From an uncultured Acidobacteriota bacterium (GTDB taxonomy: Bacteria; Acidobacteriota; Thermoanaerobaculia; Multivoradales; SZUA-115), in the NCBI GenBank assembly GCA_963805975.1, contig CAWDVR010000001.1:32001-96000 (forward strand): a stretch of DNA of 64,000 nucleotides, given 5' to 3'. The translations under genes were made by a program, and so were the position numbers. Positions 27,057-32,588 of the stretch are shown here, piece after piece (positions within the stretch are counted from its first letter, which is position 1; every line of letters starts with the position of its first letter). The notes under the pieces were generated by a model. It did no database searches, was not told where the DNA came from, and saw nothing but the letters and a program-made list of their open reading frames with translations.

Positions 27057-28619
27057 CTATGTGCCTGGCGAGCCGCCTTTCGCCGCCGTCTCCGGCAGCG
27101 TAGCAGAGGCGGCCGCGACGGCGTCGATGTCCTGCAGCAGGCGATGGTGCCGGCGCTTGACCTCGATATAGGCCGGGTCGTTGGCCAGGTTCTGGTGCTC
27201 GCCGGGGTCGGTCTGGTGGTCGTAGAGCTCGGAGTCGCGCCGCGTCAGCCACTCGTTGTAGCGGTAGCGCTCGGTGCGCAGCGCCCGGCCCCAGAGGAGA
27301 GCGTCCTTGCCGAAGCGGAGCAGGGTCTCGGCGCCCCGTCCGCGGTGCTCGGCGGGATCTCTCAGGTGGCGCACCAGGCTCTTGCCGTCGAGCCCCTCGG
27401 GACGCTTCATGGAGGCGAGCTGGAGGAGAGTGGGGAAGAGATCGACCAGCTCGACCGGGCTCGGCGCGCGCCCCGGCGGGATGCCCGGCGCGGCGATCAG
27501 GAGCGGCACCCGCGTCGTCTCCTCGAAGAGCGTCATCTTCTCCCAGAGACCGCCGTGCTCGCCGAGGTGGACCCCGTGGTCGCCCAGGAAGACGATGATC
27601 GTGCTCTCCGCCAGGCCGAGCCGGTCCAGGGCATCGAGGATGCGGCCGAGCTGCTCGTCCATGAAGGAGACGGCGGCGTAGTAGGCGCCGCGCATCTCGC
27701 GCTGCTCCCGCGGCGGCATCTCCGGGTGCCGCTTGGCGGCGTGCACGGCGCGGGGGGGCACGTCCGCGAGGTCGTCCGGCGGCGCGTCGGGGAGCGCCAC
27801 CTGGTCCACCGGGTACATGCGGAAGAAGCGCGACGGCGCCACGTACGGCAGATGGGGCATCGAGAACCCCACGCCGGCGAAGAACGGCTGGTGCCGCCGG
27901 GCCTTGCCGAGGAGGCGGATGGTTTCGTCAGCCACCACGGCATCGCTCAAATGCCGTCCTTCCTGGTCGCTCACTTCCTGCCAGTAGACGTACTCGAGGC
28001 CGGCCAGGTGGCTTCCCGGTGCGGGCTGCGCCACCGCCTGGACGTTCTTCGAGCGCCAGCCCGGCGCGGGTGGCGTGCGGGAGACGCGGCGGAAGGCGCC
28101 CTCGAGCGCGCTCACCTCGTCCCACTCGATCTCGCCCTCGAACTCAGCGTGCAGGATCTTGCCGGCGCGGAAGGTGTAGTAGCCGCGGCGGCGGAAGACC
28201 TCGGGCAGGAAGGTGAGGCCGGGAACCAGGGCGCGCGGCAGGTCGGCGTTGGTGAAGACGCCGGTCCGCACCGGCCGGAGGCCGGAGAGGAAAGAGGTAC
28301 GGGAAGGGTTGCAGAGCGGGAACTGGCAGTAGGCGCGCTCGAAGAGCACGCTGCGCGCCGCCAGGCGGTCGAAGTGAGGCGTCGACATCTCCGGCCGGCC
28401 GTAGGCGCCGAGCTGAGTGCGCAGGTCGTCGGCGACGATGAACAGCACGTTGGGACGCTGCCGTCCGGCCCCGGGGGCGGGATCCTCTCCCTTGCAGCCG
28501 AGGACGGTCAGCACCATCACCCCCAGGGCGAGGGCGACCGCCGGCGGCCGGGAAAGGGCGTGCCCGGGTGGCGGGAGGCGCTGGGGCTGGGCTCGAAGGA
28601 GGCTCAAAGGTTTGGGCAA
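27057..28619 (-). CDS. Sulfatase (iduronate-2-sulfatase/choline-sulfatase-like), probable lipoprotein
   Basis: PNVLFIVADDLR, CNPSRTSFLSG (CxPxR), GKILH, PHLPY, GDHG, ELYD...DPGE; VLGC lipobox; start uncertain. Confidence 0.9.
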   Translation of the reverse strand: MPKPLSLLRAQPQRLPPPGHALSRPPAVALALGVMVLTVLGCKGEDPAPGAGRQRPNVLFIVADDLRTQLGAYGRPEMSTPHFDRLAARSVLFERAYCQFPLCNPSRTSFLSGLRPVRTGVFTNADLPRALVPGLTFLPEVFRRRGYYTFRAGKILHAEFEGEIEWDEVSALEGAFRRVSRTPPAPGWRSKNVQAVAQPAPGSHLAGLEYVYWQEVSDQEGRHLSDAVVADETIRLLGKARRHQPFFAGVGFSMPHLPYVAPSRFFRMYPVDQVALPDAPPDDLADVPPRAVHAAKRHPEMPPREQREMRGAYYAAVSFMDEQLGRILDALDRLGLAESTIIVFLGDHGVHLGEHGGLWEKMTLFEETTRVPLLIAAPGIPPGRAPSPVELVDLFPTLLQLASMKRPEGLDGKSLVRHLRDPAEHRGRGAETLLRFGKDALLWGRALRTERYRYNEWLTRRDSELYDHQTDPGEHQNLANDPAYIEVKRRHHRLLQDIDAVAAASATLPETAAKGGSPGT

Positions 28620-28830
28620 ACGCCGGCTCCTGAAGGGGGCCGGCGAGAACCGGAAGTTTAGCCCGCGTTGCCACCCGGGGCTCGACGGGTCTCGGAACCG
28701 ACAAATAGGAGAAAAAGTGAGTTGAGGATGGAGCTGGGTGACTTTTATGATATTATATGCATGTTTCGATTTATCAGGCTCAGTCGTTGTCGTCGCGCGG
28801 GAGCTAGATCGGTTCAACAGGAGGCGCAGC

Positions 28831-28938
28831 ATGCACCCTCTCCTCGACCTGCTCGCGCAGTGGCTTCTCGCCCTGTCCCCCGACGGCCTGCACCAGGAAG
28901 GAGGCACCAGTGATCCGGTCGGCGGTCCCGGTGGCTAG
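28831..28938 (+). CDS. 35-aa peptide MHPLLDLLAQWLLALSPDGLHQEGGTSDPVGGPGG
   Basis: AGGAGG RBS at 28819-28824, ATG 28831, TAG 28936-28938; AT-rich promoter-like region upstream. Confidence 0.6.
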   Translation: MHPLLDLLAQWLLALSPDGLHQEGGTSDPVGGPGG

Positions 28939-29032
28939 CGGAAAGCCGGGGCCAGGCCCTCCATCTCGGCAGTGGACAGTGCGCTGAAGAGCTGGTAGAA
29001 GGGCGCGAGCGGCCGACAAGGCAGAAGCACCG

Positions 29033-30376
29033 ATGGCTCGACCGAAGCACCCACGGCCCGAGACCCTGGCCCTCTTCAGCCAGGGCGCCGCCGCAGCCGG
29101 GTCCACACGCACCGTGGTGGCGCACTTCCTCTTCGGCTGTGCTCCCTGCGCTTCGACCGTGGCCCGGGCCGCGGCGCTGGTGTCGGCCGCGCCCGAGCCT
29201 CCGGAGCGCTACCAGGAGGCGATCGCCCGCGCCGCCCGGGCGGCCGAGCACCGCTGCCGAGAGCTGGCCCGCGCGGGGGAGACCACCGACGAGTTCCTCG
29301 GCCTCCTCCTGCGCCAGCCGCGCACTCGCCAAGTGCTCCTGCTGCGCAACTCCGAGCGCGGCAAGACCTGGGCCCTGGTCGAGCGCCTGCTCGCCGCGAG
29401 CTTCGAGGTCCGCTTCGACGACCCGCAGAAGATGGTGGCCTTGGCGGAGCTCGCGCTGCGCGTCGCCGCCGGCCTCGAGCCCGCGCGCTACGGGCCGCAC
29501 CGGGTCGTCGACCTCCAGGCGCGAGCGGCGGCCGAGCTCGCCAACGCCCTGCGCGTGGCGGACCGGCACGACACCTCCATGCTCGCCCTGCTGGCGGCGT
29601 TCGAGCTCGCGCGGCACGGCACGCTCGACCCGCTGCTCAAGGCACACCTCTTCGTGGTGGCGTCGTCGGTGCTGCGCCAGCGGCGTCGCCTGAACCTGGC
29701 CGCACTGGCTCTCGAGCGCGCCCTCCGCGTCTACCAGCGCCACGGCCTGCGGCACGAGGCGGGCCGAGTGCTGGTGAGCTGGTCGCTGCTCGAGACCCAG
29801 CGCCCCGACGTGCCGAAGAGCGTCGAGCTCCTGTGCCGCGGCGCCGACCTGATCGAGGTCTGGCGGGACCGCCGCCTGGCGACCACGGTGGTCAAGAACC
29901 TGCTCTTCAGCCTCGTCGACCTCGGCCGCTTCACCGTCGCCGGAGAGCTGCTCGCCGAGTGCCGCGGCATCTTCGCCGAGTTCGGGGACCGCCTGGTCGA
30001 GCTGCGGCTGAAATGGCTCGAAGGCCGGATCGCCGCCGGCACCGGCCGCGAGGTGGAAGCCGAGGTGAAGTTCCTCGAGGTCGGCCGTGGCCTCGAACGC
30101 GCCGCGCTCCCCTACGACGCCTCCCTGGTGCGGCTCGACCTGGCGCTGATCCTGCGCCGCCAAGGGCGGCTCTTCGAGCTCCGGCGGCTGGTGCAGGAGA
30201 TGCTCGAGAGCTTCCGCCTCCTGAAGCTCGAGCGCGAGGCGGTCGCCGCCCTGCTGGTGCTCTCCGAAGCCGTCGACCAGCCACCGGTGCCGATGGTCCT
30301 CATCAGCCGGGTGCGGGACTTTCTGTGCCGCCTGCCGCTCGAGCCGGGGCTGAGATTCGAGCCCGCCGGCGCCTGA
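29033..30376 (+). CDS. Zinc-finger (H-x4-C-x2-C) + TPR-like helical repeat protein
   Basis: N-terminal HP...L..F...VVAHFLFGCAPC, then Ala/Leu-rich helical repeats (AELANALRVA, ALERALRVY, LKWLEGRIAAG, SLVRLDLA). Confidence 0.75.
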   Translation: MARPKHPRPETLALFSQGAAAAGSTRTVVAHFLFGCAPCASTVARAAALVSAAPEPPERYQEAIARAARAAEHRCRELARAGETTDEFLGLLLRQPRTRQVLLLRNSERGKTWALVERLLAASFEVRFDDPQKMVALAELALRVAAGLEPARYGPHRVVDLQARAAAELANALRVADRHDTSMLALLAAFELARHGTLDPLLKAHLFVVASSVLRQRRRLNLAALALERALRVYQRHGLRHEAGRVLVSWSLLETQRPDVPKSVELLCRGADLIEVWRDRRLATTVVKNLLFSLVDLGRFTVAGELLAECRGIFAEFGDRLVELRLKWLEGRIAAGTGREVEAEVKFLEVGRGLERAALPYDASLVRLDLALILRRQGRLFELRRLVQEMLESFRLLKLEREAVAALLVLSEAVDQPPVPMVLISRVRDFLCRLPLEPGLRFEPAGA

Positions 30377-30407
30377 GGCCGGTGGTGAAAAGACGAGGGG
30401 CTGGGAC

Positions 30408-30559
30408 CAATACCGTTCACTGAAGCCTCGTTGCTCGTCATCCCCGCGAAAGCGGGGATCCATCTGGGTCTGGTCGCCCGCCCTGGATCCCCGCTTTCGC
30501 GGGGATGACGGCAAAGAGAAGAACTCGATTGGAGGACAGTCACTAAGTGAACGGTATTG
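30408..30559. mobile_element. IS4-like MITE (152 bp) carrying a REP doublet
   Basis: Perfect 14-bp TIRs CAATACCGTTCACT / AGTGAACGGTATTG; flanking 10-bp direct repeat GGGCTGGGAC / GGGCTAGGAC. Confidence 0.75.
30436..30510. repeat. REP doublet CGTCATCCCCGCGAAAGCGGGGATCCA and its inverse
   Basis: Perfect 27-bp inverted repeat, each arm itself a hairpin. Confidence 0.9.
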
Positions 30560-30562
30560 GGG

Positions 30563-31348
30563 CTAGGACGACGCCGAGGAGTAGGCCGCCAGGCCGCGCT
30601 TCCAGATCCAGGAGACGGCGGCCGAGAGCCCGGCGGTGACCGCCGCCGCGTGCAGCAGCAGGCGCCAGCTCGGGCCGTCGAAGAGCGCCGTGGCCGGCAC
30701 CGAGGCGATGAACCCGAGGGGCAGCACGGTCAGCAGCGCCAGGCGCAGCCAGCCGCGGTAGATGCTGACCGGCCGCTCGCCCAGGTGGCTCAAGGTCCAG
30801 CTCACCTCGAGCAGGCCGTGCGTCGAATGCAGCCAGAACACGGGCAGGATGAACATCAGCCGGTTGAGGTAGATGAGGAACGTGCCGAGCGGGATCAGCA
30901 GGAGATACGCCACCACGTGGCCGGTGCCGAGCTCGCCGGGGTAGCGCGCCAGGGCCCACACGACGAGCCCCGCGGCGGCGAGCACGTTGAGGAAGGAGTT
31001 GGCCGCGAAGTCGCGCAGCGAAAGGAAATAGAGCGACGACACCGGCCGCACCAGGTAGTAGTCGAGGTCGCCCTTGTTGATAAGTAAGGGCAGTGCCCAG
31101 AGGTTGTTCGAGAAGACGGTCATGTAGATGGCGTCCGAGAGCAGGTAGGCGCAGACGAAGAGATAGATCTGATCGAGGTCCCAACCGCCCAGGAGCGGCG
31201 TCTGGCCGTAGATCACGGTGAAGAAGGCGAGGCTCACGGCGTAGTAGATGAGGTCCATGACCACTCGGAAGAAGAAGTCGAGCCGGAACTCGAAGGCACG
31301 GCTCGCCGAGTAGCGCAGGAAGTGGAGGTAGAGCGTCAGGTAGCGCAT
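30563..31348 (-). CDS. ABC-2 family transporter permease (DUF990/ABC2_membrane_6)
   Basis: EFRLDFF, GGWDLDQ, INKGDLDYYLVRPVS, RPVSIY, GLAAYSSASS. Confidence 0.88.
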   Translation of the reverse strand: MRYLTLYLHFLRYSASRAFEFRLDFFFRVVMDLIYYAVSLAFFTVIYGQTPLLGGWDLDQIYLFVCAYLLSDAIYMTVFSNNLWALPLLINKGDLDYYLVRPVSSLYFLSLRDFAANSFLNVLAAAGLVVWALARYPGELGTGHVVAYLLLIPLGTFLIYLNRLMFILPVFWLHSTHGLLEVSWTLSHLGERPVSIYRGWLRLALLTVLPLGFIASVPATALFDGPSWRLLLHAAAVTAGLSAAVSWIWKRGLAAYSSASS

Positions 31349-31404
31349 GGAATGCCCGGCGGAGCATACTGCCCCCATTGGAACGCCCCAATTCGAGCGT
31401 CCCC

Positions 31405-31454
31405 AATTCAATAGCAAGGGGCGGAGTGATCGGCCGCGGCGGCCGGCCTATCCT
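31405..31454 (+). promoter_or_regulatory. Putative Ada box and -10 of ada
   Basis: AAT-N6-GCAA at 31405-31417; GCAAG-N3-CGG; TATCCT 31449-31454, 6 nt before ATG. Confidence 0.65.
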
Positions 31455-31460
31455 GCCGCC

Positions 31461-32588
31461 ATGATGACCCAGACGATCGACCCCACCCCGGACCGGAGAC
31501 CCTTGTTGCAACCCACCCTCGACACGCTCGACGAGGCCCGCTGGCAGGCGGTCGTCGCGCGCGACGCGGCGGCGGACGGACGGTTCGTGACCGCCGTCAA
31601 GACGACCGGCATCTACTGCCGGCCGAGCTGCCCGGCACGGCGGCCGAAGCGGGAGAACGTGGAGTTCTTCCTCACCTGCGGCGAGGCCGAGGCCGCCGGC
31701 TTCCGCGCCTGCCTGCGCTGCCGGCCGGCCGGCGCCCCGCCCGCCGACGAGCGCCTGGCCAAGATCCAGCGCGCCTGCCGGCTGATCGAGCAGGCCGAGG
31801 AGCCGCCGAAGCTGGCCGAGCTGGCGGCCGCGGTGGGCCTCTCGCCCTTCCACCTGCAGCGCAAGTTCCGCGAGGCGGTGGGCGTCTCGCCACGGGTCTA
31901 CTTCGAGTCGCTGCGCCGCAAGCGGCTACAGCAGAGCCTGGAGGCCGGCCGCTCGGTGACCGACGCGCTCTACGAGGCCGGCTTCGGCTCCAGCAGCCGG
32001 CTCTACGACGCCTCGTACGATCTCCTGGGGATGACGCCGTCGCGCTACCGTGCCCGGGCGCCCGGCGAGGTGGTGCAGTGGACGGTGGCCGCCTCGCCGC
32101 TCGGCCGGCTGCTGGTCGCTGCCACGGACAAGGGCGTCTGCCGGATCGAGCTGGGCGACGACCGCGAGGCGCTCGCCCGGCGCATGGAGCAGCTCTTCTC
32201 CGAGGCGCACCTGGTCGAGGGCGGCCCGGAGCTGGCGCGCTGGGTGGAGGAGATCCTCGCCTTCCTGGCCCAGCCGGCAAAGGGCCTCACGCTGCCCCTC
32301 GACATCCGCGGCACGGCCTTCGAGCAGCGGGTGTGGGAGGCGCTACGCCAGATCCCGGTAGGCGAGACGGCGAGCTACGGCGCCGTGGCGCGGGCGCTCG
32401 GCGAGCCGCGCTCGGCGCGGGCGGTGGCGCGCGCCTGCGGCGCCAACCCGGTGGCCCTCGCCGTGCCCTGCCATCGAGTGATCGCGAGCGACGGCTCGTT
32501 GGGCGGGTATCGGTGGGGGGTGGAGCGGAAGCGGAAGCTGCTGGAGCGCGAGGGGGCGGCCGGTGCGCCTGCTATAAACCCGGCATGA
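31461..32588 (+). CDS. ada: Bifunctional transcriptional activator / O6-methylguanine methyltransferase Ada
   Basis: GIYCRPSC...GFRACLRC Zn site, AraC HTH, VPCHRV. Confidence 0.96.
   Translation: MMTQTIDPTPDRRPLLQPTLDTLDEARWQAVVARDAAADGRFVTAVKTTGIYCRPSCPARRPKRENVEFFLTCGEAEAAGFRACLRCRPAGAPPADERLAKIQRACRLIEQAEEPPKLAELAAAVGLSPFHLQRKFREAVGVSPRVYFESLRRKRLQQSLEAGRSVTDALYEAGFGSSSRLYDASYDLLGMTPSRYRARAPGEVVQWTVAASPLGRLLVAATDKGVCRIELGDDREALARRMEQLFSEAHLVEGGPELARWVEEILAFLAQPAKGLTLPLDIRGTAFEQRVWEALRQIPVGETASYGAVARALGEPRSARAVARACGANPVALAVPCHRVIASDGSLGGYRWGVERKRKLLEREGAAGAPAINPA

Follow-up and report, generated by a model that had tools for sequence, protein, structure and literature searches.

The locus examined here raises the question of whether a gene for a very short peptide and the gene for a helical protein directly after it form a signalling pair, and what such a pair would control. 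An earlier sequence-only reading of the window (the whole stretch of DNA that was analysed, 64,000 nucleotides) had pointed to an AT-rich tract at about 28740-28776, an AGGAGG ribosome-binding site, an open reading frame of 35 amino acids and, 94 bp further on, one of 447 amino acids. All of these were present as claimed, with 72.5% A+T in the 40 nt from 28741 in a genome of about 70% G+C. The peptide encoded at 28831-28938 is MHPLLDLLAQWLLALSPDGLHQEGGTSDPVGGPGG, and the 447-aa protein, which we call the receptor after the role proposed for it below, is encoded at 29033-30376. Pfam and NCBIfam hold no family of its own for either product. The features are collected in Table 1.

Table 1. Features of the peptide/receptor locus and its neighbours, in window coordinates
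Feature	Position	Strand	Remarks
Sulfatase	27057-28625	-	window neighbour
Extended -10 promoter-like box	28748..28763	+	TG-n-TATTAT, then NTGCATG; within the AT-rich tract
Shine-Dalgarno sequence AGGAGG	28819..28824	+	6 nt 5' of the ATG at 28831; identical in sister species G001
35-aa peptide gene	28831..28938	+	Trp-containing amphipathic helix (about residues 3-15), then one E-G-G-T-S-D-P-V-G core
TGGACA-N14-TGnTA promoter-like box	28973..29001	+	kept in G001; last -10 base off consensus
Zinc anti-sigma domain (ZAS, class I ASD-like), predicted	29033..29179	+	ligands H6, H31, C36, C39; three predicted helices
TPR superhelix, modelled	29321..30376	+	about 8 helix pairs; conserved N171, R174, N289, R325, W328, D369
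ABC-2 family membrane protein	30563-31348	-	window neighbour
Ada-type methyltransferase regulator	31347-32588	+	window neighbour

The same gene neighbourhood was found in the sister species G001, where the syntenic locus encodes a 36-aa counterpart of the peptide and retains the ribosome-binding site and two short boxes, and the remaining intergenic DNA has diverged. Between the two peptide genes 13 codons are identical, 12 differ synonymously (one of them the stop) and 11 non-synonymously, with 9, 6 and 18 differences at the first, second and third codon positions; the G001 copies are 68% (peptide) and 73% (receptor) identical to ours. Because the frame is kept in G001 with this third-position bias, 28831-28938 is very likely a real gene, presumably translated. 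A longer reading of the same frame (66 aa) was rejected, as it overlaps the upstream promoter box, and a 17-nt indel interrupts it in G001. That box is likely the promoter of the peptide gene, judging from its sequence; it is kept at the three syntenic loci (the source genome, G001 and G004), is absent from every other locus fetched, and is overlapped by a sigma-70-like site reported at 28722-28751 by a consensus scan. Neither Gibbs sampling nor dyad counts found a family-wide promoter motif upstream of the peptide genes. No RNA sequencing run was listed as containing the locus, and two DNA sequencing runs contain related strains, in pieces. It was also noted that a palindromic REP/MITE-like repeat (25 BLAST pieces in the genome) lies directly after the receptor gene at 30385-30559; it is a recent insertion or variably present, since contigs of two related strains join across it. 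The sulfatase, ABC-2 and Ada neighbours are syntenic in G001 and partly in G004, and no functional link between them and the pair was seen.

We then considered what kind of protein the receptor is. Its AlphaFold2 model is all-helical (pLDDT 93.9), with three short helices (residues 9-16, 22-34 and 37-49), a long linker helix and about eight helix pairs; no membrane helix was detected in the 447 residues, the best 19-residue hydropathy being 1.55. The N-terminal profile of the family matched ChrR (E 2.4e-5), DdvA (1.2e-4) and chain 3hug_B (9.7e-4), the last named RslA in the available text of PMC11506125. In the profile alignment H6, H31, C36 and C39 fall one for one on the zinc ligands of ChrR. 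These four residues are invariant across the nine closest proteins, and the pattern is kept in 112 of 130 further full-length representatives. The anti-sigma-like finger that had been proposed, H31-x4-C36-x2-C39, is therefore present, together with a fourth ligand, H6, that had been missed. Zinc anti-sigma domains carry four ligands (H/C ... H-x3-C-x2-C) in a three-helix domain, and this arrangement was found here with x4 spacing. The head is a zinc anti-sigma domain by its sequence, with zinc binding and sigma inhibition as predicted activities.

The remainder of the receptor was modelled as a TPR superhelix, in agreement with the TPR-like helices expected of it. The closest folds were LGN/Pins (Z 23.3 and 22.1), RapI (20.5), NprR (19.8) and a phage Rap (18.7), and Foldseek also placed LGN first. 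Matches to RRNPP proteins span Z 15.7-20.5, below LGN, at 9-12% identity, and the superposition on RapI gave an rmsd of 4.6 over 306 residues. With eukaryotic LGN/Pins TPRs heading the matches, the fold does not point to RRNPP proteins in particular; as modelled, it is RRNPP-compatible and not diagnostic. No RRNPP protein appeared among the 60 of 106 matches listed in a PDB sequence search, and no Rap, Rgg, NprR, PlcR, PrgX or AimR model was among the 15 NCBIfam models matched. TPR_12 was matched by 81 of 89 family members; the focal protein itself matches no TPR model. Across these 89 receptors six positions stand out, namely N171 (89%), R174 (95%), N289 (87%), R325 (80%), W328 (84%) and D/E369 (98%), all of them kept in the focal receptor. 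They correspond to TPR positions 9, 12, 6, 2, 5 and 6, which we take to be groove-facing. No catalytic motif is conserved across the alignment of the 89 receptors.

The source genome was found to hold 14 paralogous receptor loci (one split by a frameshift) and two truncated copies, and 13 of the 14 paralogues have a partner peptide gene beside them when variant cores are included. The genome has 68,677 small ORFs, and 23 terminate in G-x3-D-P-x-G. For eight, the stop is followed within 315 bp by a paralogue in the same orientation; one further nearby hit is a repeat element, and the remaining 14 are more than 20 kb away. With 8 of the 23 motif ORFs sitting directly upstream of paralogues, the adjacency is more than chance. 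Relatives of the receptor were detected in 18 of 21 related genomes (1-42 matches each) and in 80 of 151 genomes of the order (E up to 1e-60). Across the phylum, where five candidates were scored for each of 301 genomes, 11 genomes had relatives, every one of the same class; the database names of the relatives are Thermoanaerobaculia and Acidobacteriota. The statement in the sequence-only reading that Thermoanaerobaculia carry many such paralogues beside peptides with a W-L..L...EG.x.DP.G motif is thus borne out. A profile search of 1.84 billion representatives (50%-identity clusters) returned 5,592 matches (E up to 1e-30), some of which may be other TPR proteins. No relative was found in viral contigs using this query or in a first metagenome scan, and a second scan gave one locus.

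The flanks of the paralogues were scanned for G-x-x-x-D-P-x-G small ORFs, as had been suggested. A strict match adjoins 60 of the 97 distinct receptor loci with enough flanking sequence (59 after dropping a shadow frame at L015). Among the 37 loci lacking one, 23 have a signal-plus-helix ORF with a variant core by manual reading, and about 15 of the 97 show no recognisable partner in the available flank. A conserved small ORF is therefore present beside the homologues both in G001 and at most family loci. Among 236 proteins there was no fusion of an ECF sigma factor to a receptor and no G-x-x-x-D-P-x-G core in any of them; one longer relative was seen besides this set. The same TPR core also occurs with XRE helix-turn-helix heads, making the regulatory head exchangeable, and these XRE receptors are arranged as tandem pairs, separated by a gene on the opposite strand for a multi-core peptide that contains Cys. 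A distant TPR relative of uncertain start codon, L017 (in G012), has an N-terminal part that presumably resembles an AraC-type helix-turn-helix.

We sought to characterize how the focal peptide differs from these partners. A typical partner has a Sec-like signal, a Trp-rich helix and one to six G-x-x-x-D-P-x-G cores. Long peptides of this kind make up 48 of the 57 collected, with an A-x-A site in 39 and a Trp-containing helix in 44 of the 48. Signals were called by a heuristic of charge and hydrophobicity, not by SignalP; by this measure all 48 have K/R within the first ten residues and a hydrophobic stretch of at least 2.28. The focal peptide is acidic, has no K/R, reaches a hydropathy maximum of 1.68 and starts at the Trp helix. 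Its first half had been read as leader-like; it is neither leader nor signal, and corresponds to the Trp-rich helix that follows the signal peptide in the long family members. In 92 cores the residue before Asp is mostly I, L or M and that after Pro mostly N or D; in the focal core, unlike most, Asp is preceded by a polar residue. Conservation among the partner peptides is limited to a 7-residue stretch, and in eight orthologous peptides the core is nearly invariant and the spacer variable. Twelve partner peptides had no family in Pfam or NCBIfam. It was noted that clade-specific cores do not prove co-evolution by binding, because linked genes are inherited together.

The two nearest outgroups, the syntenic G004 locus (84 aa) and the metagenome locus L137 (76 aa), encode signal-bearing peptides by the same heuristic. 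On a quick tree of 30 receptors, signal-less peptides stand at four places and well-supported branches force at least three changes. A single clade of five of the signal-less loci was rejected (p-AU 5e-6), for a group that was chosen after an earlier tree had been seen. By the heuristic, the focal peptide has lost its signal, and such loss is repeated in the family. Since it is predicted to have no export signal, the focal peptide would act inside the cell that produces it.

We assessed the connection to sigma factors in the same set of loci. Immediately upstream of the receptor, 27 of the 97 loci have a full ECF sigma gene and eight a gene with sigma region 2 only; the 16 XRE-headed loci all lack an upstream ECF gene. 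For the family, the connection to ECF sigma factors put forward earlier is thus supported, through these genes and the ChrR/DdvA/RslA profile matches; the focal locus itself, like its two syntenic orthologues, has no ECF gene directly upstream. Because the locus carries no sigma gene, the identity of the partner of the focal receptor is a guess. Four full-length ECF sigmas of the linked clade (E 1e-62 to 1e-71) are encoded in the genome, at G000 C1:1249506-1251389 and C1:1331276-1331953, with no receptor adjacent, which by sequence makes them the obvious choice of a candidate partner in trans; the other full-length ECFs match the clade at 1e-18 or weaker.

The 94-bp spacer was found to contain a TGGACA-N14-TGnTA box, likely the receptor's own promoter to judge from its sequence. 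The same box precedes the ECF gene in three-gene cassettes. Among 39 full-length ECF-clade genes, drawn from related loci with one entered twice, 20 have it upstream, compared to 3 of 2207 background genes. Its interpretation as an ECF promoter was dropped: one of the three exact copies in the genome precedes a gene that we presume to be mraZ, and for this reason the box is read as sigma-70-like. The spacer keeps the box that precedes the ECF genes of the clade, as would be expected if the sigma gene of a peptide-sigma-receptor cassette had been lost here; L005 and L108 are complete examples of such cassettes. The focal pair likely descends from one, without its sigma gene and without the signal peptide.

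Several other sigma arrangements were recorded. Mini genes of about 85-100 aa that hold sigma region 2 only occur in the source genome (G000 C5:45115-45414, C5:626021-626758, C4:146601-146903 and C5:412380-412640), two directly upstream of receptors and two solitary; such genes recur in other genomes, and their products are possible decoys or anti-anti-sigma factors. Three tandem linked-clade ECF genes stand at G000 C1:1249506-1251389 with no anti-sigma gene adjoining. Low-copy ECF and receptor cassettes (L130-L133, families f4 and f9) lie directly before a dihydrolipoamide acyltransferase gene and near a lipoate ligase gene; three of the four have a variant-core secreted peptide, and they may represent the ancestral locus.

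What the pair does is answered here by a proposal that in our judgement has about as much chance of being right as wrong: it would be an RRNPP-like peptide/receptor switch on an ECF sigma factor encoded elsewhere, here with a likely intracellular ligand. Translation of the peptide, its binding to the receptor, control of the sigma factor and the sense in which the switch turns are all predictions. The 447-aa protein would be a cytoplasmic peptide receptor built from a zinc anti-sigma domain and a TPR superhelix. Through its core, G-x-x-x-D-P-x-G, the 35-aa peptide would occupy the TPR groove and, by way of the linker helix, alter the grip of the zinc domain on the sigma factor. For the peptides of typical family members, the predicted route is Sec export followed by trimming and re-import, on the model of Rap-Phr or NprR-NprX; the genome encodes two family-5 solute-binding proteins, and no precedent for peptide re-import across two membranes was found. 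The focal peptide would instead set the state of its receptor within the producing cell, governed by the peptide promoter, and imported cores of paralogous origin may still elicit a response from the receptor. A complex prediction of the TPR part (57-447) with the 35-mer scored 0.01 against a mark of 0.32; the controls did not fold, so that this result is uninformative.

Comparison with known systems places the pair close to, and outside, the described groups. Cytoplasmic peptide receptors with adjacent propeptides are known from Firmicutes and their mobile elements, to which the survey in PMC10075063 is limited in its available text. Set against the ranges given there, the propeptide (10-100 aa) has 35 residues, the receptor (250-500 aa with TPRs) has 447 and a modelled superhelix, and the genes (-60 to 400 bp apart) are separated by 94 bp; Sec export is where the focal peptide departs, as judged by the heuristic that all 48 long relatives pass. 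The earlier suggestion of a paralogous peptide/TPR-sensor module analogous to RRNPP signalling accordingly finds its layout here, with the function predicted. Like Rap-Phr and NprR-NprX of Bacillota, the family joins a small peptide gene to a 250-500 aa TPR protein of similar fold, with many paralogous pairs per genome, an N-terminal effector domain (protein-binding in Rap, HTH in NprR/PlcR) and duplicated cores in the propeptide, up to six in this family; intragenic core duplication is known for the Phr and NprX autoinducers (PMC5199041, available text). It differs in its diderm phylum, the usually upstream peptide gene, the zinc anti-sigma effector, the low identity with no sequence match among those listed, the Trp helix and DPxG core and, for the focal copy, the missing Sec signal (heuristic). 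By analogy the pair would work like Rap-Phr, yet we do not class it as an RRNPP member.

Other systems share single traits with the pair. Rgg-SHP and PrgX-PrgQ, with PptAB export (PMC10075063, available text), likewise place a very short non-Sec propeptide beside a TPR-type receptor; there, SHP-type signals have a basic N-terminus followed by a hydrophobic stretch, whereas the focal peptide is acidic with no K/R, and its receptor has no HTH. The ZAS proteins ChrR, RslA and RsiW share the three-helix domain with an HHCC zinc site and, for many family members, the ECF gene directly upstream. In contrast to them, the family mostly has H-x4-C, its sensor is a soluble TPR superhelix and not a cupin or membrane domain, and the focal copy has no adjacent sigma gene. 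DdvA of Myxococcus xanthus, partner of the ECF sigma DdvS, also unites a zinc anti-sigma domain and TPRs in one protein; according to the available text of PMC11506125 it is a membrane protein with a periplasmic TPR-CHAT part, whereas the focal protein lacks both a membrane helix and a CHAT domain and is partnered by a peptide gene. Our literature search found no description of this peptide/anti-sigma-TPR system. No such group is named in the available part of the ECF reclassification PMC7826278, whose ECF group tables may name the linked sigma clade. The module is real and apparently undescribed in the literature, and the focal copy is a derivative that lacks a sigma gene and, by the heuristic, a signal.

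For the class as a whole we advance, tentatively and with more doubt than belief, that Thermoanaerobaculia hold a large RRNPP-like network independent of Firmicutes, in which DPxG peptides would switch soluble TPR receptors wired to ECF sigmas or, through XRE heads, to DNA, and in which repeated signal loss would give a cell-internal switch. If true, cytoplasmic peptide-receptor signalling would extend to two-membrane bacteria, with up to about 40 family copies per genome in a diderm class, and would gain a new output, the peptide-gated soluble anti-sigma factor. What had been communication between cells would, on loss of the signal as at this locus, become an internal peptide switch acting on a sigma factor whose gene lies elsewhere, and the signal-less copies offer a natural experiment on whether export is needed at all. 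As the components involved are small and soluble, E. coli could serve for tests of binding, specificity and the control of sigma, with no need to culture the organism.

An unlikely alternative is that the receptors monitor export: each would bind un-exported precursor in the cytoplasm, the family would report Sec capacity or envelope state, and the signal-less copies would be constitutive intracellular ligands. ECF sigma factors usually respond to envelope stress, this account avoids re-import through two membranes, and signal-less forms that keep helix and core arose repeatedly, with at least three forced changes. However, dozens of paralogues with differing cores per genome suit a diversified extracellular signal better, as do the tandem core repeats and the paired cysteines of the XRE clade.

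We regard it as distinctly unlikely that the adjacent regulator senses something else and has the peptide as its output, in the form of a small product that is secreted or acts on membranes. The amphipathic Trp helix of 44 of the 48 long peptides would suit such a product, and in the XRE clade the peptide gene and one receptor gene are divergently oriented, as a regulated target would be. Conservation confined to the 7-residue stretch, the recurrence of the same short core beside receptors with different heads, and the Asn/Arg-rich set of conserved residues kept by the TPR part all argue against it.

That the focal copy is a decaying remnant, with a non-functional peptide and a receptor orphaned after the loss of sigma gene and signal, we hold to be quite improbable. 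Both losses are evident here, the core is atypical, and another paralogue in the genome is split by a frameshift; several sites conserved in the family are changed in the receptor (W166 to A, D178 to R and H288 to K among them), which by sequence also fits decay. However, the peptide has stayed at 68% identity to G001 against 73% for the receptor, with third-position bias and with its ribosome-binding site and promoter boxes intact between diverged flanks, and all four zinc ligands and the six conserved TPR residues are retained.

The second option of the sequence-only reading, a RiPP-like precursor with a binding partner, was not supported; a RiPP precursor served by the TPR protein as its binding partner or as a helical maturase of unknown type is highly improbable. 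Other RiPPs of Thermoanaerobaculia are treated in PMC13083261 (available text). A leader-like helix and multi-core precursors recall such a system, and 3 of the 89 members weakly match the cyclophane-RiPP TPR model HaaT (best E 1.5e-6). Against this, no modifying enzyme or RRE protein recurred in the 61 neighbouring ORFs scanned (of 215 called in 23 regions) or stood among the window neighbours (sulfatase, ABC-2 membrane protein and Ada). The long precursors have a Sec-like signal, and catalytic motifs are not conserved. With no shared modifying enzyme seen and with N-terminal domains that are regulatory (anti-sigma or HTH), this alternative is unsupported. A cis-acting leader or ribosome-arrest peptide controlling the downstream gene, of which SecM and MifM are examples, is scarcely credible despite a short same-strand ORF directly upstream with a Pro/Gly-rich C-terminal motif, since cores are repeated, the XRE-clade peptide is on the opposite strand, related peptides of family f14 lie downstream, and the 94-bp spacer holds its own promoter-like box and has ordinary structure with no attenuator (z -0.57).

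Returning to the peptide/receptor switch as the preferred reading, two further groups of family members were noted. Family f14 (L034-L037, L040-L043, L135 and L136, of the same class) is a distant zinc-domain/TPR branch, several members of which have an ECF gene upstream. Its peptides are secreted helix peptides with a Pro-rich tail (D/E-x-x-x-x-P-x-P), mostly encoded downstream of the receptor, and its receptors have a different groove residue, Glu at TPR7 position 9; the f14 peptides may be a second ligand class. Finally, L128:4596-5888 (G000 C3:403595-404932) is the only paralogue of the source genome with no partner peptide gene, and it carries D-P-N-G in its own N-terminal linker. The background expectation for D-P-N-G is about 0.002 per protein of this size, and the linker motif was seen in no other full-length receptor checked and also in the truncated copy at C3:215787; it is possibly a tethered ligand, or chance.
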